Shown piece by piece: positions 26,259 to 37,699 of a stretch of DNA of 64,000 bases (position 1 is its first letter; each line of letters starts with the position of its first letter). The notes beneath the pieces were generated by a model. It made no database searches. It was given only the letters and a program-made list of their open reading frames with translations, and was not told the DNA's origin. This DNA comes from Curvularia clavata (Eukaryota): NCBI GenBank assembly GCA_023920165.1, contig CP089275.1, positions 4,030,001 through 4,094,000 on the forward strand, in the 5' to 3' direction. Both the position numbers and the translations under genes were made by a program.

Positions 26259-26285
26259 AGAAAATTCCAAGGAATCATCGAGAAG
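26259..26285. promoter_or_regulatory. Heat-shock-element-like nGAAn array upstream of HSP60
   Basis: aGAAa aTTCc .. gGAAt cATCg aGAAg, ~140-170 bp upstream of the HSP60 ATG; imperfect match. Confidence 0.5.
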
Positions 26286-27731
26286 TCGGCGCTCGGACCA
26301 CATCACCACTAGCCTCGGCTTTAACCGCTTCACTCCGACTCCCTCGTTGTCATCGCCTTTTAGTCGTAAAAAGTGGAAGCCAAGAGCGCATTTATTCAAT
26401 TGCTTTTGCTTGGTTTGTACAACTCGAACATCGAGAGCTGCGTTGTGGAAAACGTTGCCTCGAGGTAAGAAAGCGCTAAGTCGCTGCTCTCTCAGCTTAC
26501 CAACATATTGCCCTCGATCGACTTGAAGCTGGCACCGAACACAGAAAACTCTTCTCGCCGGCTAGAGCTTCGATCAGATCTCCATAAACTTTGTATGATA
26601 TCTTGTTGCTTCTTCATGTATGCAAGTGCTTTTCATTAAGTTACTAGATCTTTGCTTATTGTCCTTTCTCTATGACTAATAGCTAGGTGTGGCGGAATTA
26701 CTCTTTCGTGGATTTAGTTGTTTTTCACAGCAATTTCATATAATCAATTTGCATTTCCCCCGGGAAAGAATTTGGGAGCTTCGCTATTTAAATATGTAAT
26801 TACAGAAAGAGGAGGGTGCAAAAAGGCGCTTGTTCTTTTAGGTAGTTCATGTTTTCTCTTCTGTATGAGGGTTCCTGTGCACGTGCTAACACCACAACAA
26901 CTAGAATTTGAGTTGTGCGATTTTGCGTACAGAAGCTGGTATAGAAGCGATTTCACCATTGCCAGTTTTATCAAAGTTACACAGTTACTGCTCACCAGGC
27001 TCAGGTGTAGCGCGGTTTTCCCACACACATTTTGAGTTGGTCGCCCTAACTATCGTGCGAGGCATCGATGCGCAAAGACTAGCCTTGTCGAGTAAGCTAC
27101 ACTACTCACATAGTACATTTTATTTCGTATTTATCGAGTATTACTTGACTTTGGGACCTGATGAGATAGCATCGCAATGCTCAAGATGCTCAAGATGCAA
27201 ATCCATCTTGTTCACGTACTCCCCGAACGTAGATGTATATTGGCGGATAACATGTTAGTTATATATGTTCAGGACACCCTTGCAGCTTCATCATGTGTAT
27301 CATGTTAGCCAATGACAAGGCTATGCCCTACACCATTTGGAGCGGGCAAAAAGGCAACTAGAATACTCAGCCGTGGCGTTTCAGCTGAGGAGTAGCCTCC
27401 GAAATATGCACGAATACCGCCACGTACACTCGAACAACTCGCAGCTCGTACATGTGATGAATCTCGCATGCTAAATTGTTTTGGTGTCCTCTGCAGGACA
27501 ATTATATGCATCGTTCAGCTATTTCCGAAGTGAGTCATAAGGCTGAGGCCGTTCATAGACAGGGACATAAAGTTTGAGCCTCAGCCTTCCACTGCTGGTA
27601 AAACATAGAAAGCATCGAGGATAGGTACAGCCTACTGCCTGGGCTCACGACACTGAATGCATCACAAATACTGCTGATTTACTTTGCCTGCATCCGTGCC
27701 ACCATCAGCCAAGCGAAGAAATCACCTCCAG

Positions 27732-28171
27732 ATGCCACCACATCCTCGAGTAGCGGATCCAGAGATGAAGCGCGACATGCAAGCGCAACGCAGACCTACT
27801 CTTCCATCTGCGAAAGTAAACCGCCGAGTTCAGGATACCTATACAGCGTATGATGATTTTCCATGGGAAAAGATTGAAGAGTACCTGAAAAGTAAATGGC
27901 CAAATTGGGATTTCAAGGCGGAGGAGGTATGTCACGCTTGCGGTGTATAAGACACGCGACTAATACTTCGACCAGTTCAATGGCAACTGGCTGTTCGAAG
28001 TGCCAGAAAAGCTGACAGAGGCCAGTCCGGTGCACTGTTCTCGCGATTACGTGGCTAACTATGTTTCAGGGTGACCGGAGGGAGCTGAGGAATCGAAGAG
28101 ATGCGCCTAAACGAACAAGGAGGCTGTCGATTTCACCGGAGCCAGAGCCAGACCCAGCGTCATTCTCGTAG
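27732..28171 (+). CDS. Small hypothetical protein (113 aa, 3 exons)
   Basis: Exons 27732-27926, 27976-28020 and 28070-28171 join in frame: ..FPWEKIEEYLKSKWPNWDFKAEE|FNGNWLFEVPEKLTE|GDRRELRN... Intron 1 is GTATGT..CTAAT..CAG and intron 2 is GCCAGT..GCTAAC..CAG. Confidence 0.7.
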
Positions 28172-28454
28172 TATCATTCGCGAAACTGGGCGCATGGCTA
28201 TCGGCAGATCGTGTACATGTGATGCAGCCCCTTACACCCTGTATTAGATGATGCCTTGCTGCCAGTGAAGCCGCCACTGGTGGGGGCGGAGTATTCGCAT
28301 TGCCGCGGAACGCCTACCCGCCCATCCAGCGAGGCGCAGCAAATCTGCCTCGAGACTTTCGTTAGATATTGTGCTGCTTGAAATATCATGTCCTTCGTTC
28401 ACTTCGTTCAGTTGACATTCAAAGTTCAACGTCGCTGCTTCTCTAGTATTGAGC

Positions 28455-30442
28455 ATGGAAATGTTGTACACATTACCAGTCGAGCTGCAGAAGTCTTATC
28501 TTGACCACGCCAACTATCCAGAAAACCTGATCCCTAGTGGAATAGCCACATACAATTCAAAGCTTCTTTCATACAAGAGACGCCTTGATGATGCCGAATC
28601 AGACCTTTGTCTGGATCCTAACAAGGACAATGTTGAAAGAGACTTCGAAATTCCCATGATTGACTTAGGCATCAGTGATGGTAAAGGTAAGAAGCCTCCC
28701 CAATCACTCCCAAAAATGCTAAAGTCTCTAGGGCGAGATAAAAGAAACATACACACTCCAGCAATACTCACGGAATGGCTCGGTGTCACGACTGCAAAAG
28801 ATGCGGGCGACCCAACCGCGCAGCCGCTTATGACACGAAAGAAAGATCCAAAATGCCGGTTCATGTAGGACCAACCTCAGTTTTGCAATGTCCCACGCTA
28901 ATCGCATAGATATCTGTATGGACAACACTCGCGTGACCAACTGAAAATAACTCGCAAGAGCCTTTGCCAAATCCTGTCTTATCATCAGGTTATGCCCGTA
29001 TACCTAGACTTCATGCTAGTCTTTGGCGGCCAGACTGATGCTAGGGATCCTCGTTTCAGCGGGTTTCGAAAGCAGATACGCCTCAAGGATCCATCAAAGG
29101 GACATGCAGCACCTGAGTTGGGTCGCAGCGGCAAGCTGTTTCAAATCTGCTACAATTTGAAGGGGGTACAGTTCAAGAAACAGAGTGATGAAAACATCAA
29201 ACTGGATGAATGGTCGATTCGCGATGCTGCAATATACCATCAATTTGATGTGGAATGCGGAACTACTCTTTGGATCGTCACCAAAGGAGGAACGGACATT
29301 TTAGATCGTTTCAAAGAACTCATCGGACCAGCCGGCCGACAAGAGGATAGGGAGTACCACGACGCCACGACTTGCTTCCGGGCCACACTTGTGACGCATT
29401 TGCTTTATTGTCATTGGTCGACAGAAGATTGGAGATGGTATATAGTGTGGCTGGAGAGTGTGATTGAACAAGAAGTAAGTGTTCTTACCCGCCGGCATAC
29501 ACAGGCTGACGTCGAGGCGTTCAGAGTGGAATGGCCGTGAATGGACTTCGTGGTGCGGGATACGCTCACAAGATTTACCAACCGTGGGACATACAGGATT
29601 TACAGCATTGGCAAGACCAAACCAATGCGACCGTCATGGTCTTGGAGTCTAATGCTAAGATTGTGAGGACACTACGCAACTTCTATGAGAACTTGGTCGC
29701 TCGGGACGATTTCCCAAATACGTTGAGAAAAGCATCCGAGGATCATATTTATGCTTTCTTTTCCCAGTTGGACGAGATCATAGGTGACTTCGACATGCAA
29801 ATAACCCGAGCAAAACTTTTGGCAAAGATAATTAGCGACAGAAAAGAGCTGGTATTGCAGCATCTGCAAAGTCAAGCTTCAGAGCGAACTGAACAACTGA
29901 ATAAAAATCTTGAGCGCGAAGCTATCCTCATGCGCATCGTCACGCTCGTCACGCTACTCTACCTACCAGCAACATTCGTATCGGTAGGTTTAGACATACT
30001 TTTCTGTGGCTCTCGTTCTGACCTTTTATAGACCTTCTTCAGCACTGACGTTGTCAAATACCAAGACCAAAACCAAAGTGCTACCGGAGACGAAAAAGCC
30101 TCTTTCTCTAGCCTTGCTTTGAAGCGCTGGCTCCAAGTCACTATACCTCTGACGTTTCTAACTTTGTTCGGGGCTTGGTTAACGTACCGTGTTTGCCAGA
30201 GTACCATGGGACAATGGAAGCTTTTTGAGAGTCTGAAGCGCATTGTGCCTGGGCTGGCGTCACCCAGGGCCGTTTCCCTCACATCGAGAACGGCCCAGGG
30301 TGATGCTGCTACAAAAACCTGGAAATACGCTATTGGCCGCCTAGTACATTCGACCAAGAAGCTTGCTAGAAATATGCACCGGTTGCGTAGTGATCGCCCT
30401 GTTTTGCCCATTAATGAGGAATATGTATTGCGAACAGGCTGA
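28455..30442 (+). CDS. Fungal CorA-like protein (large soluble domain plus two C-terminal TM helices)
   Basis: Four exons join without stops: CRFI|YLYGQHSRDQLKITRKSLCQILSYHQVMPVYLDF, WSIRDAAIYHQFD, long helical stalk, TM1 MRIVTLVTLLYLPATFVS|TFFSTD, TM2 WLQVTIPLTFLTLFGAWL. Confidence 0.85.
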
Positions 30443-31244
30443 GGATGAGGCCGGGCATCAACTCTCTTAATCGAAATGTTGCATTCGACTATTGTCATAA
30501 GACTTCGGCACCTCCTCTTTTCGTCCAATTCATGTAGAACGATACCAGTATAGGGCTTACATTGTCATCGGAAGGCTCCTGAGATCCGGCGTAACTTCCC
30601 AGCCAAATTTCGAAGCTGACAAAACCGGAGGAAGAAGCCAATCTTGAAGTTACTGAGTGGGATTAGTGGCGCTTAGCGAAGAGGTGTTCATCTACTCAGC
30701 CCGGTCGGATCAGCCTTGAGAATCGATAGCGCATACCATGCACCCCCGTAACAATACCGCACTTTGCCATTACAAAATGAGTAAGAAGCTTGAATGTACC
30801 CTCATTTTGGTTTTTCTCGTTTGTCTTCCCTCGACCATAGACTTTTTTCGGTGAACAGAACGTGGTGGCGGAGCAAAAGCTCAGCCTTGTTGCCTTGCTA
30901 AGGGTGTCAGCTTGCTGCAGCCACAAAGTCCTCCAAACATCTATTGGTGCAATATACATTTCGGGCCCATTTCCAGCCGCACACATCCTAATCGATAGGG
31001 CTCGCATAACTATCCGTCCCACCTAAAACACTGAAGCTTTACGGCCGTTACTTGCAACTTTCATCTCATCACCTCCTACAGGCTCATTGCCACGCGTATC
31101 TTTTGCACAATCAGCCCGAATACCTCGAGTCTGTCGCACTGTGTATATTCCAAATTTGGCGCATCGAGCGCTAGTTCAGCCTCTACTCACTCACTGTTTC
31201 ATGACGCCATCTCTAGCCTGATCGCTGGTTGGTACCACGTCAGA

Positions 31245-34200
31245 ATGCATTCCCAATCTCAAGAGCAAAGTCATCGCCCCTATATCGAAGATGAATTCAG
31301 AAAACAATTGGATTCAAAATGGACCCGTCGAGTCGCATGTCAGAACGAATGCAGACCCCCAGAATCGTGCAGCTGCCAGCGCACAATTGTCCACGTGAAA
31401 GCGATCGAAAAATGGTGGAGTGAACAACTCGCTGAGAGCCCTGGCCAGACTAGAGGGCATATATTCTTGGACGAAATGCCCTCTGCTTCTCATAGGACTT
31501 TCCCGCCTGCATATCAAGACATTTTTAGTGGCGAAGGATGCTGCGTTCGCGTTCTCAGCCTGCTTCTCCAGCAAGGTCGTGACCATCTTATTGATCTTTT
31601 TCAGTACGGCACTATGCACGACAAGTACCTTATGCGCGGTGGAAACCATCAAGTCCTTCGCGAGATCCTACTCAAAAAAGTGAGGCGAGAAGATGTGGAC
31701 ACTATTGTCAGGGATTTTGACAGAGACAAATGGGCATACTGTCCAATGGAGCTGACTCTAGGCATGACCTTCAATGCACACGGAACGAAGGTCATACCAC
31801 CATTTTGTCTGAAGATAAGACTTCCGGATAAGGGGGGCACTGCATCTATATATTGGGTAGCTGTGCAAAAGGACCTGATCTCGGACGATGCGCTCGCACG
31901 TACGTTACGCGACTCGCTTTACCATGATGAAGATTTCGGAGAAGTAAGTTCCATCATCAATATTTCTTCCTCACTCACTAACCGGAAATCAGTGCTATCA
32001 AATGATTCTTAAGTCCTACGCCGGGGACAAAGAAAGCGTTTTCGACCTGGAAAAGCAAGCCTTTACAGGCCTCAACTCGAAGAAGGACGTGCCAATATTG
32101 CAATACTTAGGCTCCTACACTCATGACTATGGTGAAGGAGGGCATATGGGAAAGACTTACAACATATTGTTAGAGTATGGTGAGAACGACCTCTACCAGG
32201 CATGGGCAGATGAGACGAATGTTCCTCCTGTACGAGCTCAAGAGATCCTCCGAACATGGAACTCACTTTTCGAGATTGCCAAAGCGATTCGACACGTACA
32301 TCATCTCGAAGTCCCACGAGGCGGTGGAAGCGAGCCCCGAAGATTTCATGGGTATGTACGCTTAGGACACTTTTGCAGCTCACAACTAATGACAAAAAGC
32401 TGGCATGCAGACATCAAGCCAGATAATATCCTCAGTATACGCGGACAACTGAAATTATCAGACTTTGGTTTCTCAAGCTTCGCCCCAGTCATCAAAGGAA
32501 ACGCTCGCTCAGTCCCGACAGAACTCATAAGGGGGTTCACTGATACGTACGGTAAGTGCATAAGCGGGAAATAGTTCTGGAGATTTTGCTAAGAACTGCA
32601 AGGCGCACCTGAAGTATTCCGTATGAAAAAAGCAGATGGAACACTTTCGGGTGTTACACAAGCAATTGACATATGGTCGTTCGGTTGTGTGCTATCAGTC
32701 GCCGCAACGTGGATCGTCTTGGGATTCCAAGGAATACGCCAATACGAGCAGCTCCGACAGCTTGCTACCTCCAATTGCCAGAGTGGAAGAAAACATGACC
32801 GATTTCACGACGGTACAAAAGCTCTTGAGGAGATAAGGCAATGGCACGATTATCTTCGGGGACATCTGCGCCCTTCGGATACCACAACCGAACAAGTGTT
32901 GACCCTGATAGAGAACCACCTACTCCAGGAACAACCATCTAAAAGACCAGATTCTGAGGAGCTCTGCACAAGGTTACAGAAATTATTCAAAGGGGCACAG
33001 CGTGACATCCAAGATCTTCCGCATCACTCAAGGGAGACTGATGCGGCAGTGCTCATGGCACTTTCCAAGATAGAAGAAAGAGCTCACAGCCAGAGATCTC
33101 TAGAAGCAAAAACGAACCCAGCACTTCTACCGCAACCAATAATGCCGACTGGTGCTAGTCAGGTCAATCCTCGGAAGTGGGCGTCGATGCAGTTTCAGAA
33201 GGATAATATGATCAACTGCAAGCCTTTAGGCCAGACGCCATATCGAAAGGAGATCCTGAGACAAGAATTGGGAGAGAACACTCTCGGTCTTCGCGGCAAT
33301 GGCGAAAGTGCCAACCAAGAAAGTCATAATGGCGACTTTACACAGAGCCCCACACACAGCACCTCCATCCGAGGGTTCCAGATCCTTAGTCCTCAATCGA
33401 CGCCTGTGAAAACTCAGTTTCGAGGAACCCACCAACAAGAGCACGACGGGCAGTATCATGCAGTACAGAATGAAATTGGTGAACAAATCGCTACTCCAAA
33501 GACGCCAACATTACAACAACGCCATAATATATCTCAAGATGAAGATCAGTCAGTCCGGATGACATCCTCTAACTCTTACCGCACGCCATATTCACGTAAG
33601 CCGGGGGATGCAATGGAAAGTAAGCCTGATGTGACATTCAAAGGGCTTCCACCCGGTTCTTCGCAGATCACATCCAATGCACGCTTGCCGCAGATTACAA
33701 CACAGCTCATTCCTTTGTCACCTCCGTACACACCCAGGACCCATATCACGCCACCAGAGCAGTCATCTATAGAACCTCAAGCCCGAAGTGACGATAATTC
33801 GCAGGGCAGCATTCCAGAACTGGCCAGTCCCAGCTCCAAAGATTCCTTCTATGGTGGTAAACAAGTCTACGACACAGCTAGTCGTGCGGAGCTTCATCCA
33901 GACGTCAGTCCAACATCCAATCCAACATCTCTGTTCAGACCTTTCAACTCTTCTAAAGAGAGAGAGAACATTCAGGCAAATTATTCGGGCACGCACGTTC
34001 AATTAGAGCAGGCCGCTGAAATTCAAGGCTCAGCTACGTCGCATGATTCGCGACATATGGAACAAGGACTTCCGCCATTGGTGTTGGACTTACCATACAG
34101 CATCTGCCAAAAACGGAAGAAACTCGACCAAGAAAAGCCAGGGAAAATTGGGAGGTTGAGGAACATGGTGACAGGTAGGGAGGATAGAAGACCAGATCCC

Positions 34201-35142
34201 AACCTGAGGGATATGTCCAATGACTGTCGTGAACTAGTAAGAGCACTTGAGGCCTCTTCAATCCCAGTGGCTAACAAATGGAAGGTGTTCATCATCGATA
34301 ACGGTTGGACAATGTTCGAACACTGGCCCATTGTAACTTTCGTTGTTGAAACGCTTGCAATGAATGCTGCAGGTATCGACAAAAGCGGGATCGATCTGCG
34401 ATTTACGGTGGACGGGAACAGCCACAACAAGGATGACATCGTCGGAGACACTGGGCGGAAACTATTGAGAAAACATCTGAAAGAGGCTTGGCCCGAGCGC
34501 AGGCAGAAAGATGATGTAACAACCGATATGGTTGCGGTTTTCCAACGGGTATACCAAGAATGGAAAAACAAGGACAAACCAGCCACAACGCTCTATGTCT
34601 TCACTGATGGAAAATGGGCCAAGGAGAACTCAACAACCCTCAACGAAAGCATTCTCAAATTTGCCAAACAAGACCGCAGGGTAACAGGCAAGCGCCACTT
34701 TAGTATCCAGCTCATCCGCTTTGGCGACGACGAGACAGACAAGAAACAACTACAATGGCTCGATGATAACCTCTGGTCAAGCCTCGATCTCCGCGACATC
34801 ATTGACCACTGCTCATGGCGCGCAAGTGTCGACAAGATTTTCAAGGGAAGCATAGAACCTTCCCACGACGAGAAAAACAACGAGGAACTCCCCATTCTGT
34901 ATAACTACAAGGAGCTAGTGGAGAAGTTCAACGCATTCAATATGGGCGAAGAAACCCAGGAACACGGGAATCAAGATACAGGACTTTTATACCCTTCCTC
35001 GCCTTCAATGCTGTATCGTAGCTCTTCCCAACATTCCGGTCGCTCATTCACATCCGCGCCAAGGAAACGAGACACTGCACCTCCTGAGACTCCGAAAAGC
35101 TATTCTAAGCGCTTCTCGCGGTCGTCTCTGTTTCCTTCATGA
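31245..35142 (+). CDS. Ser/Thr protein kinase with C-terminal vWA-like domain
   Basis: Spliced kinase motifs KGGTASIY, MILKSY, ILLEYG, WHADIKPDNIL, LSDFG, YGAPE, DIWSFGCV. A S/P/Q-rich linker leads to a vWA-like domain (VFIIDNGWTM, LYVFTDGKW, FSIQLIRFGDD). Introns at 31944-31992, ~32352-32399, ~32552-32602 and a probable in-frame one at ~34237-34284. Confidence 0.92.
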
Positions 35143-35786: not shown

Positions 35787-37699
35787 TTACGAAATCCTTC
35801 GTCTTATACGCCAACGAGCCAGGCTCTCACCTTCATACCTAATCCTCGGTTTCTCGATCTTCATCACGCCTTCTCTCAAGAATCGGCTGCGTCGTAAGGC
35901 CTTCTGTGCTGGGTTGGGTACATAAGGCGATGCAGCATATCTGCGCACAAGCGGCAGCGACCTTCTAGGACCAGCAGGCAAAGTTTCACGTAAGAGGCGA
36001 CGTAACAATTGTTTTGTTCCGTATGACAAGACTGGTTTTGCTGGTACGAAAGATTGGACGGTGCGAAGGGGTGGCGCGGCTTTGGTGGGGAGAGCGATGA
36101 ATTGGTGGCTTCTGAGTCGAGTGAACCTATTGTGGCGATACGTCCGTTTGGTTGCAGGCATCAAGGATGCGTTGGCTTCTCTATAGGATTGCTGAGAAGT
36201 CGTTTCAGCGAAGGAAGCTTTCGTGGATCTCTCACCTTCGGACTGAGCTGGAAGACTAGATACCAAGATTGCACTAGGGCCTGAGGTTGGTGCTGGATCA
36301 CTCGCAGCATGCCCATTCATAAGCTTGGTTTTGTCGGAGATTGAATTGAGCTTCTGGGAAGCAGACTGTTCTACGTTGTCTTTGCGGGAAGCTTCTGTTC
36401 GTGCGCCGCTTCTTGTGAAAGCCTTATTCGATATCGGGGTCCCATCTGATACATTTGTAGAGGGAGAGGTGGGTGTCGGTTTCTGTTTGGAGGTGTAGAC
36501 AGTGCCTTTGACAGCAACACCGCCTGTTGGGCCCTCAATCCATACATCATAGATGCTTCCGTTATCCAGCGTCTTCTTTTCCATTCCGCAGATGCGCATT
36601 TCCTCGTCGCAGTACAACGGAGCGAGATTTCGATACTCAATGGACTCCAGGACCTGCTCTCCGTTGGTGTGTACGTCCAGATGATGTTTCATGACTTGCA
36701 GCATGAGCGTTAGGGATAGCGGCCCATGTACCAGGAGGTTGCGATGACCCTCAACATTACGGGCGTAGCCTGTATCTAGGTGGATCAAATGGGCGTTAAA
36801 AGTAAGAGCAGAAAATCGGAATAGCAGTGCACGGTTGGGAGTAAGAGTATGGGAGAAGTGGGGATTACCAGGAGCTATAGGCAGTTAGCAAGCAGCTCGA
36901 GCAGTAGATCGAATCACGCACGATTTAAGTACTTGATGGCAGCCATGTGACCCGCCTTTATAGCCTCCAGTTCGGCCGGGCTACGCTCCTTGAAGAAGAC
37001 CAAGTTGCGTTCCTCTTTGAGAACAGCACTGCCCCAAGGATCATCACTACGCATTTGGTCCTCGAAGTAGGCTTGGATTCTCCGCAAACCACTAGCCCTG
37101 CCCAATGAGCCACGATGAATCCTGTAGCTTTCTTTTAGGGTATCGACCCTCGCAAAGCGGCGTTCAATAGTGACAAAGATCTTGGCTGTATCGCCCTGTC
37201 CATGTAGTCGGACATGCTTGATGTGCTCAGCGCCAGCCATGGGCGTATCTACAGCGAAACCCCGATTTTTGTCGAAGTAATCGCCAGGCTTCACCTGAAT
37301 CGAACCACCTGCCCACATGCGCCGAACCCAAGGCCCGCCTGGAGACTGGGATGCATCTGTTCCATCAGGAAGTAGGTCGCAGGTTGGTAGCGATGGATTG
37401 AACCAAATCAGGTGATGACCAAAAGGCACTATAGGATTTCTCACGCCTGGTGGATGGCAGTACTCTCGGGGTAGGAAGCCGGTCAGCGTCTGCGCAAGCT
37501 TGTATTCGTGCGGAACGGTCAAGTGCTCAGGCAGATGGGTCACGCCCCGCTGCAGCATCTGGGTACGCAGCTGCTGAAACCATGGCGGGTCGTCGGAATC
37601 TGTTGCTGAGGCATACCCGCGCAGTGGCGTGCCTCGCCGATGTATGCGGTGTGGCAGGGCCCAGCCGGCTCGTCGTGTGCAAGGCGTGGAGCGCAGCAT
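35787..37699 (-). CDS. HTD2-like / mesaconyl-C4-CoA hydratase-like hotdog-fold dehydratase (mitochondrial)
   Basis: Arg-rich presequence, HHLIWFNP..LLPDGTD..SPGGPWVRRMWAGGS, LLFRFSALTFNAHLIHLD..YAR.VEGHRNLLVHGPL, YRNLAPLY; one intron ~36876-36918; long basic C-terminal tail. Confidence 0.88.

Follow-up and report, generated by a model that had tools for sequence, protein, structure and literature searches.

The window analysed here, a stretch of 64,000 nucleotides of Curvularia clavata DNA (GenBank assembly GCA_023920165.1, contig CP089275.1, positions 4,030,001 to 4,094,000 of the forward strand), holds three neighbouring genes, g1, g2 and g3, which encode a small cytosolic protein of 113 amino acids, a membrane protein with a predicted CorA fold and a protein kinase joined to a C-terminal domain of predicted von Willebrand factor A (vWA) fold, respectively. 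With high probability these three genes form one functional unit. Filamentous ascomycetes of different classes generally have little gene order in common, and such clusters as are conserved are mostly metabolic; here, order, strand and spacing were found to be kept in Dothideomycetes-, Leotiomycetes-, Sordariomycetes- and Lecanoromycetes-like lineages as well as in duplicated copies of the cassette, and for this reason an undescribed signalling module is proposed. The function which we favour, with a probability of roughly 0.5, is that of a module in which a kinase regulates a CorA-type channel that has a small protein as its partner, with a role in cation flux or stress signalling. The combination of known folds, its deep conservation as a compact cassette and the S-T-D variant of CorA which is found in g2 appear to be new.

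The exon models were initially derived from open frames and splice signals and were then corrected by spliced RNA contigs coming from four public runs (Table 1). All 10 introns, including every one predicted beforehand, appear as joints in the RNA contigs, which added two in-frame introns to the models, i.e., 28687-28731 in g2 and 34237-34284 in g3. An earlier account of this locus made from the letters of the window (the sequence-only reading) had described three intact, co-oriented genes with gaps of 283 and about 800 bp between them. This description stands, as the contigs of the four runs document three spliced, expressed genes on the plus strand, with the second gap measuring 802 bp from the g2 stop to the g3 ATG.

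To follow the cassette beyond the window, metagenome contigs were scanned with an alignment of the g2 family, and 79 environmental loci were obtained from the best 80 of 257 confirmed stretches, which clustered into 60 groups at 95% nucleotide identity. Downstream DNA of 3.5 kb or more is available for 20 clusters; in 16 of these the kinase gene follows g2 on the same strand, while it is found upstream on the opposite strand (i.e., divergently) in two and is not found in the remaining two; among the ten clusters with 1.2-3.5 kb of downstream DNA, its start was seen in six and was not seen in four. Homologues of the genes, for which the sequence-only reading had left room to be unlinked elsewhere, are hence clearly linked. 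The g1 gene was searched for by an iterated hidden Markov model (HMM) in the 30 clusters with at least 1.2 kb of upstream DNA and was identified upstream on the g2 strand in 23 and inverted in one, the others giving weak paired matches (three clusters, E 0.015-0.11) or none (three clusters). Over all loci, matches below 1e-3 to the g1 HMM occur on the plus strand in 35 and on the minus strand in one, an asymmetry which serves as internal control. The g1 core is separated from the g2 start by a median of 788 nt, with 18 of 24 cases lying between 611 and 810 nt, and the first g3 match follows the end of g2 at a median of 1277 nt (range 762-2531). In rearranged loci the kinase is still no more than about 3 kb away from the cassette, and one locus without a kinase (L060) has retained g1. 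As a side observation, g1 went undetected in two loci close to the window cassette (L064 and L072) and in L063, despite 1.2-2.3 kb of upstream DNA, and L064 also lacks a vWA match after the kinase; the cassette of these loci may be a reduced form.

The same adjacency is seen in named fungi. In Alternaria panax the locus tags of the kinase-vWA and the CorA-like genes follow directly on one another (G6011_01047 and 01048), and in Pyrenochaeta sp. the corresponding proteins are numbered consecutively. In Clathrospora, Setomelanomma, Bipolaris maydis, Alternaria alternata, Phaeosphaeriaceae sp., Clohesyomyces, Massariosphaeria and Amniculicola both genes reside on contigs of the same length. Public gene models go further and merge the neighbours: a model of 1542 amino acids from Cudoniella acicularis (Leotiomycetes) runs from g1 through g2 and the kinase into ankyrin repeats, a model of 1424 amino acids from Variospora (Lecanoromycetes) merges g2, kinase and vWA, and three more NCBI models fuse g1 to g2. 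Given that the join points differ (g2 residues 22, 39, 95 and 125), the merged g1-g2 models are regarded as annotation artefacts, which nevertheless prove that the neighbours are adjacent and share a strand. The idea that g1 is merely the 5' end of g2 was rejected on the same grounds, as four public models join the two at these four different positions, and it is contradicted also by the RNA contigs, in which the third exon of g1 and its own stop codon are visible. According to their nearest named proteins, distant kinase-linked cassettes resemble those of Hyaloscypha (78-85%), Lasiosphaeris (81%) and Cenococcum (93%), and others are nearest to Claussenomyces and Oculimacula-type sequences. 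Named members of the kinase family were found in Xylariales, Chaetothyriales, Teloschistales, Trypetheliales and Pseudogymnoascus; like all named g2 and g3 family members they are annotated as hypothetical proteins or as generic kinases.

Within the Pleosporales-like clade the cassette keeps a stable place beside HSP60, and synteny extends over its entire surroundings, from HSP60 on the upstream side to two to four downstream genes. Adjacency within this clade proves little by itself and would fit also with three genes that are adjacent through inherited synteny alone, without functional coupling. This explanation is very improbable, since adjacency, order and strand are kept in clades whose flanks share almost nothing with those of the window, and are likewise kept in the named Leotiomycetes and Lecanoromycetes models and in diverged paralogous copies of one assembly. 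The flanks of the window (HSP60 and beyond upstream, the two to four genes downstream) are confined to the closest loci, those of Pleosporales-like type. When all flanking open reading frames (ORFs) were compared with one another, no family common to the clades of the cassette was revealed, barring one which lies upstream in three distant loci (L033, L059 and L067) and which is the sole recurrent flanking family outside of the Pleosporales-like clade. A fourth component, such as a phosphatase or similar, common to cassettes of different clades was not found among the flanking ORFs. The sequence-only reading had allowed for syntenic conservation of the kind known from housekeeping genes, and this applies to the Pleosporales-like clade only, while the contexts differ in the other clades.

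Trees of g2 and of the g3 N-domain plus kinase were calculated for 31 units, which remained from 40 with both genes after three units with low coverage and six near-duplicates had been dropped. Both trees have the supported clades in common and differ in the deeper and weakly supported branches. The clades recovered by both, with their support values in the g2 tree and in the kinase tree, respectively, are clade A with 13 Pleosporales-like units (96/100 and 97/100), clade C with five units (94/87 and 100/99) and the pairs of L022 with Cudoniella (100/98 and 99/98), L010 with A. alternata type 2 (100/99 and 100/97), the window with B. maydis (95/94 and 100/96) and L006 with L011 (100/100 and 100/99). 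One assembly holds two cassettes (L021 and L047), each with g1, g2 and kinase-vWA genes, whose g2 proteins are 43% and whose kinases are 32% identical, and another assembly (L077 and L048) gives the same picture of two diverged cassettes. As two diverged complete cassettes exist in each of these two assemblies, the cassette was reasoned to have been duplicated as a unit, with the copies keeping all three genes. The idea of a real multi-gene unit, as put forward in the sequence-only reading, is borne out by these data, i.e., by linkage, order and orientation, which different classes of Pezizomycotina and also paralogous copies have retained, and by trees which share their supported clades.

The g1 and g2 genes may be carried on a common transcript, although the contigs give a mixed picture. 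In X1 (3351 nt) and X2 (2844 nt), one contig each comprises spliced g1, the 283-nt spacer and spliced g2, and an intron-free environmental contig of 2652 nt which is apparently derived from mRNA (L001) comprises g1 at 105-446 and g2 at 743-2542, i.e., complete ORFs of 113 and 599 amino acids with 296 nt between them. In run X22, g1 and g2 are found on separate contigs with a break near 28402-28430 and depths of 77.6 and 16.8, respectively, whereby contig depths are unable to rank expression and an uncovered bin (27287-27573) is no sign of silence; the g1 and g2 contigs of X9 are also separate. Since a contig is no proof of a single molecule, the view that g1 and g2 share a bicistronic mRNA is considered a supported hypothesis rather than a finding, and a separate, more abundant g1 mRNA probably exists in addition. 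Passages of a report on the ascomycete Glarea lozoyensis describe an operon-like transcript of glpks3 and glnrps7 (PMC4471562), which resembles the case described here in that one transcript covers two neighbouring protein-coding genes of an ascomycete, an arrangement rare in fungi. According to these passages the Glarea pair is one of secondary metabolism and belongs to a single species, whereas the g1-g2 arrangement is conserved across classes, with the evidence for a bicistron being mixed.

These observations also bear on the question of how tightly the kinase belongs to the cassette. It might be that g1 and g2 alone are a functional pair, i.e., a channel and its small subunit which are possibly encoded by a bicistronic mRNA, and that the kinase gene is adjacent for reasons of chromatin or co-regulation and acts mainly on other substrates. 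The very tight and conserved g1-g2 spacing and the RNA contigs bridging both genes fit such a pair, as do the looser g2-g3 spacing, the kinase being on the other side and strand or being missing in two of 20 clusters each, and the retention of g1 in the locus L060. What speaks against it is that the family of N-domain kinases is narrow in its architecture and tracks the g2 tree clade for clade, paralogous copies included, which exceeds the expectation from co-regulation and hence weakens this explanation; moreover, rearranged loci keep the kinase close by. A g1-g2 pair with an unconcerned kinase is therefore considered rather unlikely.

The assignment of g2 to the CorA fold comes from structure prediction. 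Pfam CorA (PF01544) matches g2 exon 3 below threshold (E 0.43, 10.3 bits), and the full-length g2 orthologue of L001 also stays below it (E 0.0051, 16.6 bits, cutoff 27), while nothing was found in Pfam for the N-terminal pieces of g2. A search with exon 2 returned 85 homologues, the closest being 77-78% identical, of which all 85 carry PF26616 and 11 carry a precomputed PF01544 match. The g2 protein was modelled by AlphaFold2 via the orthologue P0020, which is 77% identical in exon 2, using an alignment of 33 sequences. The resulting model (predicted local distance difference test, pLDDT, 79.3; predicted template modelling score, pTM, 0.70) shows a cytoplasmic alpha/beta domain, a long stalk helix and two C-terminal transmembrane helices and gave 65 Foldseek matches at E<=1e-3. 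Among those listed, the top PDB matches are all Thermotoga maritima CorA, with E values from 1.7e-8 to 1e-6, template modelling scores by target of 0.51-0.57 and approximately 420-466 aligned columns. In the window the relevant stretch reads LPATFVS, directly followed by TFFSTDVVKYQ, with its P-x-T-F part located inside the first transmembrane helix. The S-T-D triplet is conserved in the 31 cassette rows (S in 27, T in 28 and D in 29, the remainder being mostly gaps), and its position is one which we take to correspond to that of Y-G-M-N-F in CorA, following the order of motifs (P-x-T-F ahead of G-M-N). The CorA signature G-M-N (G-x-N) is missing from g2, where S-T-D is found instead, so that the description as a CorA-like membrane protein without G-M-N, given previously from sequence, is upheld by the model and the Foldseek matches. 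Between distant clades g2 is 44-55% identical. Near the end of its disordered tail, an R-P-x-L-P motif (30395-30409) was noticed whose proline is nearly invariant in the alignments, and which is a possible candidate for a docking site.

For g1 nothing was found in Pfam, and a search of the ESM Atlas with its orthologue P0107 or with the g3 N-domain brought up nothing but unnamed Ascomycota clusters, whose scores of 0.80-0.83 are at chance level. The gene is nevertheless considered to be a real coding gene under constraint, since its ratios of non-synonymous to synonymous substitution rates (dN/dS) lie at 0.16-0.28, with 0.16 and 0.20 in two close pairs. Its orthologue P0107 has the same three-part structure and the same exon junction at the GC-AG intron. 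In g1 rows of different clades the conserved core comes after a motif of the [RK][RK]x[ST] type. This motif takes the form RRxT[LI]P in L002 and the Pleosporales-like clade, reads R-R-P-T-L-P in the window and is a possible phospho-acceptor site. Mode-1 14-3-3 binding sites follow the pattern R-x-x-pS/T-x-P, and R-R-P-T-L-P was noted to be compatible also with this pattern.

Within g3, Pfam identifies Pkinase only, and neither the N-terminal 233 residues nor the N-domain have a Pfam match; the profile of the N-domain has no sequence relative in the PDB. The N-domain family comprises 238 cluster representatives at E<=1e-3, in which the domain is always located near the N-terminus. Out of 18 long representatives, 17 have a Pkinase domain after the N-domain, whereas the C-terminal part varies: 14 are of vWA type (as judged by an HMM of our own), one has ankyrin repeats and three have neither, with the ankyrin repeats replacing vWA in the clade of L022 and Cudoniella. 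A cysteine cluster (C-x3-C-x6-C-x-C, 31338-31379) was observed in the N-domain, one cysteine being nearly invariant in the alignment; it may be a small metal-binding site. The kinase of the window has the catalytic motifs ILK, HADIKPDN, DFG and APE, and in those alignment rows having a residue at the respective position the beta-3 lysine is conserved in 31 of 31, the aspartate of HxD in 26 of 29, the aspartate of DFG in 22 of 26 and the glutamate of APE in 23 of 25. PF00069 is found in 12 of 19 g3 orthologues, and the closest PDB sequence match is ERK2 with an E value of just 2e-4. Judged by these motifs and scores, the g3 kinase is catalytically intact yet very divergent.

The C-terminal domain of g3 was likewise assigned by its predicted fold, as the piece 34090-34959 matches no Pfam family at E<=10 and a PDB sequence search with it returned no vWA chain but only a chance match to IFT52 (E 0.084). 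The AlphaFold2 model of this domain (pLDDT 78.3, pTM 0.83) has 75 PDB matches at E<=1e-3 in Foldseek, and the listed ones are nearly all vWA domains or proteins containing such a domain, the top structural matches being RGLG1/2, CMG2/TEM8, the copine BON1 and Ku. The modelled sequence included a retained intron of 16 amino acids, which lies in or beside a low-confidence stretch (41-62) and does not affect the fold call. The fusion of kinase and vWA that had been read from the window could in this way be substantiated, by Pfam for the Pkinase and by AlphaFold2 and Foldseek for the vWA fold. A canonical metal-ion-dependent adhesion site (MIDAS) is made up of D-x-S-x-S, a threonine and an aspartate. 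In g3 the first MIDAS loop reads D-N-G-W-T-M (D-N-G-x-[ST]-M in the family), with an invariant aspartate (D70) and glycine in the middle serine position, and T172-D173-G174 is nearly invariant.

Based on these data the following mechanism is suggested for the preferred kinase-regulated channel module, which would be ancient and co-inherited in Pezizomycotina. The g2 protein would, judged by its model, most likely be a CorA-type oligomeric channel in a cellular membrane, which need not conduct Mg2+ because S-T-D replaces G-M-N at the outer mouth. The g1 protein would be produced from the transcript of g2 or from an overlapping one and would probably be a regulatory partner of g2. The g3 protein would be a cytosolic, catalytically competent kinase which may be recruited via its N-domain and/or its vWA domain (the ankyrin repeats in one clade) and which would phosphorylate g1 at the conserved R-R-x-T and/or the cytosolic parts of g2, whereby the channel would be switched. 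A physiological role, i.e., regulated cation flux or stress signalling, is favoured over one in suicide or immunity.

Several points weigh against this model. Channel activity, binding partners, phosphorylation and cellular role are all inferred, and the linkage could also be maintained by shared regulation, with neither g1 nor g2 being a target of the kinase. The set of loci is biased toward closer relatives of g2, with taxonomy assigned only via nearest named proteins, and more distant PF26616 genes may not be linked to a kinase. The clusters without a kinase (2 of 20) and those without a detectable g1 (3 of 30) imply that the parts can exist apart. As the separate contigs of X22 differ 4.6-fold in depth, g1 and g2 are possibly expressed as overlapping or tandem transcripts rather than from a single bicistronic mRNA. 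Finally, the first MIDAS loop of the vWA domain is, by its residues, only partly canonical (D-x-G-x-T).

Selection was assessed by the Nei-Gojobori method in two close locus pairs. For L002/L005, dN/dS amounts to 0.16 (g1), 0.18 (g2), 0.59 (g3 N-domain), 0.21 (kinase) and 0.38 (vWA), and for L006/L011 to 0.20 (g1), 0.16 (g2), 0.12 (g3 N-domain) and 0.22 (kinase). Every measured part is under purifying selection (0.12-0.59), with the g3 N-domain being the least constrained folded part in the pair L002/L005. Divergence is also seen within the N-domain of close relatives: over 617 nt of this domain (31312-31928), 34 positions distinguish the window from an RNA contig of organism A, while other long g2 and g3 pieces are less than 1% different. 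Out of 23 listed differences in the N-domain 12 are synonymous and 11 non-synonymous, and run X22 agrees with the window at nearly all of the listed sites which it covers. Named congeners hold versions which are 52-70% identical (P0014 and P0017 of A. alternata; the g2 proteins of B. zeicola and B. victoriae), and these diverged Alternaria and Bipolaris versions could be old alleles or paralogues.

An alternative function is that of an immune or cell-death cassette in which the vWA domain or the ankyrin repeats sense non-self or danger, the kinase switches, the CorA-like protein forms a lethal pore and g1 serves as adaptor or inhibitor, along the lines supposed in the sequence-only reading. 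Weak hints in this direction are given by the exchangeable C-terminal domain of the kinase and by the N-domain being the fastest-evolving folded part (0.59 as compared to 0.18 for g2 in L002/L005); the diverged N-domain tract distinguishing the window from organism A and the possible occurrence of several cassettes in one assembly are compatible with it as well. CorA-family proteins are membrane effectors in some bacterial type III CRISPR systems, which also speaks for the idea. On the other hand, Pfam scans of pieces of the three genes gave Pkinase and weak chance matches only, and no HET, NLR (NACHT/NB-ARC), HeLo, TIR, gasdermin or patatin domain was among them. There is no fourth conserved gene among the flanking ORFs, purifying selection prevails everywhere it was measured, conservation of g2 is strong even between clades, Pleosporales-like loci keep the cassette at a stable, syntenic place, and each of the four RNA runs contains its transcripts without a known trigger. 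Passages of a 2025 review on fungal regulated cell death (PMC12881547) make no mention of CorA and have vWA solely in a list of domain abbreviations within a figure legend. An immune or cell-death cassette is accordingly judged to be unlikely, and no specific support was found for the role in cell death or non-self recognition proposed before. Its most far-reaching version, an ancient operon-like sensor-to-pore system in which the kinase, equipped with an exchangeable sensor domain (vWA or ankyrin) and a fast-evolving N-domain, detects danger or non-self and triggers a pore formed by the CorA protein without G-M-N, with g1 being a phospho-switch or safety catch, appears decidedly unlikely; if true, it would represent a fungal counterpart of prokaryotic CorA-effector defence modules and a new class of executioner in fungal regulated cell death.

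The searched literature did not contain a paper describing the cassette, and neither did the passages of PMC12881547, so that comparison has to be made with systems sharing single traits with it. The CorA/Mrs2/Alr1 proteins are similar to g2 in their fold, which for the model matches T. maritima CorA over approximately 460 columns, and in the P-x-T-F stretch. By contrast, g2 has S-T-D for G-M-N and a Pfam CorA score below threshold, and its model is longer by about 100 residues at the N-terminus and ends in a disordered tail of approximately 60-90 residues; the g2 gene is tied to those of a kinase and a small protein, and ion transport by g2 is putative. PF26616, which is named 'CorA-like transporter domain-containing protein' in UniRef, is a domain label without described function, of which the link to kinase-vWA and g1 is not a part; a literature search with the UniRef phrase found no paper.

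The bacterial TerY-P triad consists of a vWA protein, a PP2C phosphatase and a Ser/Thr kinase. It shares with g3 the association of vWA with a Ser/Thr-type kinase, whereas in g3 both are fused in a eukaryotic protein whose partner is a CorA-fold membrane protein, and no phosphatase gene is conserved beside the cassette, so that a triad of separate proteins is not what was found here. The CorA effectors of type III CRISPR systems are alike in logic, as a CorA-family protein is encoded beside a sensing or signalling component and is a possible output; here, there are no CRISPR-Cas or nucleotide-signal enzymes, the locus is eukaryotic and intron-bearing, and control would be exerted by a protein kinase. 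TRPM7 is a transient receptor potential (TRP) channel fused to an alpha-kinase and MLKL is a four-helix-bundle executioner. In TRPM6/TRPM7 and RIPK3-MLKL a kinase is likewise paired with an ion-conducting or membrane-permeabilising protein, but g2 has a CorA fold and g3 a divergent kinase of eukaryotic type, and homology is not implied. In structure, the g3 C-terminal domain is closest to the vWA domains of copine/BON1 and RGLG (RGLG1, E 1.1e-5), though sequence identity amounts to just 10-14%, the g3 loop is D-N-G-x-[ST] and the g3 vWA is fused to a kinase and not to C2 or RING domains.

Should the proposed module hold true, PF26616, a large uncharacterised fungal family, would gain a testable partner kinase and a small partner protein. 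The g1-g2 arrangement is in addition a candidate for a conserved transcript with two ORFs in ascomycetes, and if g2 conducts ions, S-T-D would be a new selectivity variant of the CorA fold.

Table 1. Features of the three-gene cassette in the window (positions refer to the window).
Feature	Position	Strand	Details
g1	27732..28171	+	113 aa; exons 27732-27926, 27976-28020, 28070-28171
g1 introns	27927-27975 GT-AG; 28021-28069 GC-AG	+	both joints in RNA contigs, 4 runs
g1 R-R-x-T-[LI]-P motif	27789..27806	+	alignment of g1 family
g1-g2 spacer	28172..28454	+	283 bp (g1 stop to g2 ATG)
g2	28455..30442	+	599 aa; exons 28455-28686, 28732-28864, 28910-29474, 29525-29983, 30032-30442
S-T-D triplet of g2	30041..30049	+	directly after first transmembrane helix
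g3	31245..35142	+	1233 aa; exons 31245-31943, 31993-32351, 32400-32551, 32603-34236, 34285-35142
g3 N-domain	31245..31829	+	about 195 aa, outside known families
g3 protein kinase domain	31830..33004 (spliced; approximate limits)	+	Pkinase matches on exon pieces
g3 linker	33005..34224	+	about 400 aa, low-complexity, poorly conserved (alignment consensus)
g3 C-terminal vWA-fold domain	34225..34942, intron 34237-34284 inside	+	AlphaFold2 model and Foldseek

Upstream of the cassette, the opposite-strand neighbour is HSP60, as had been stated from the sequence and as is confirmed by a match to Pfam Cpn60_TCP1 (E 1e-58). Downstream, the gene at 35787-36788 on the minus strand is a conserved neighbour, being approximately 50% identical in L009/L010, L025, L026 and L064; its former label as an HTD2-like dehydratase could not be confirmed, as it has no Pfam match even at E 10. 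A search of the window for a heat-shock element gave no match. The spacer upstream of g1 is partly AT-rich, in agreement with its earlier description, with a GC content of 0.40-0.46 over 26500-27499. In related loci an ORF of approximately 180-220 amino acids was observed on the minus strand between HSP60 and g1 (L010, 2471-3139; L037, 4241-4783; also L025 and L041), which has no Pfam match. The corresponding part of the window (about 26280-27731) keeps a trace of 17 amino acids of this ORF (E 0.004), and given that only this trace is left, the spacer may be the site of a lost gene.

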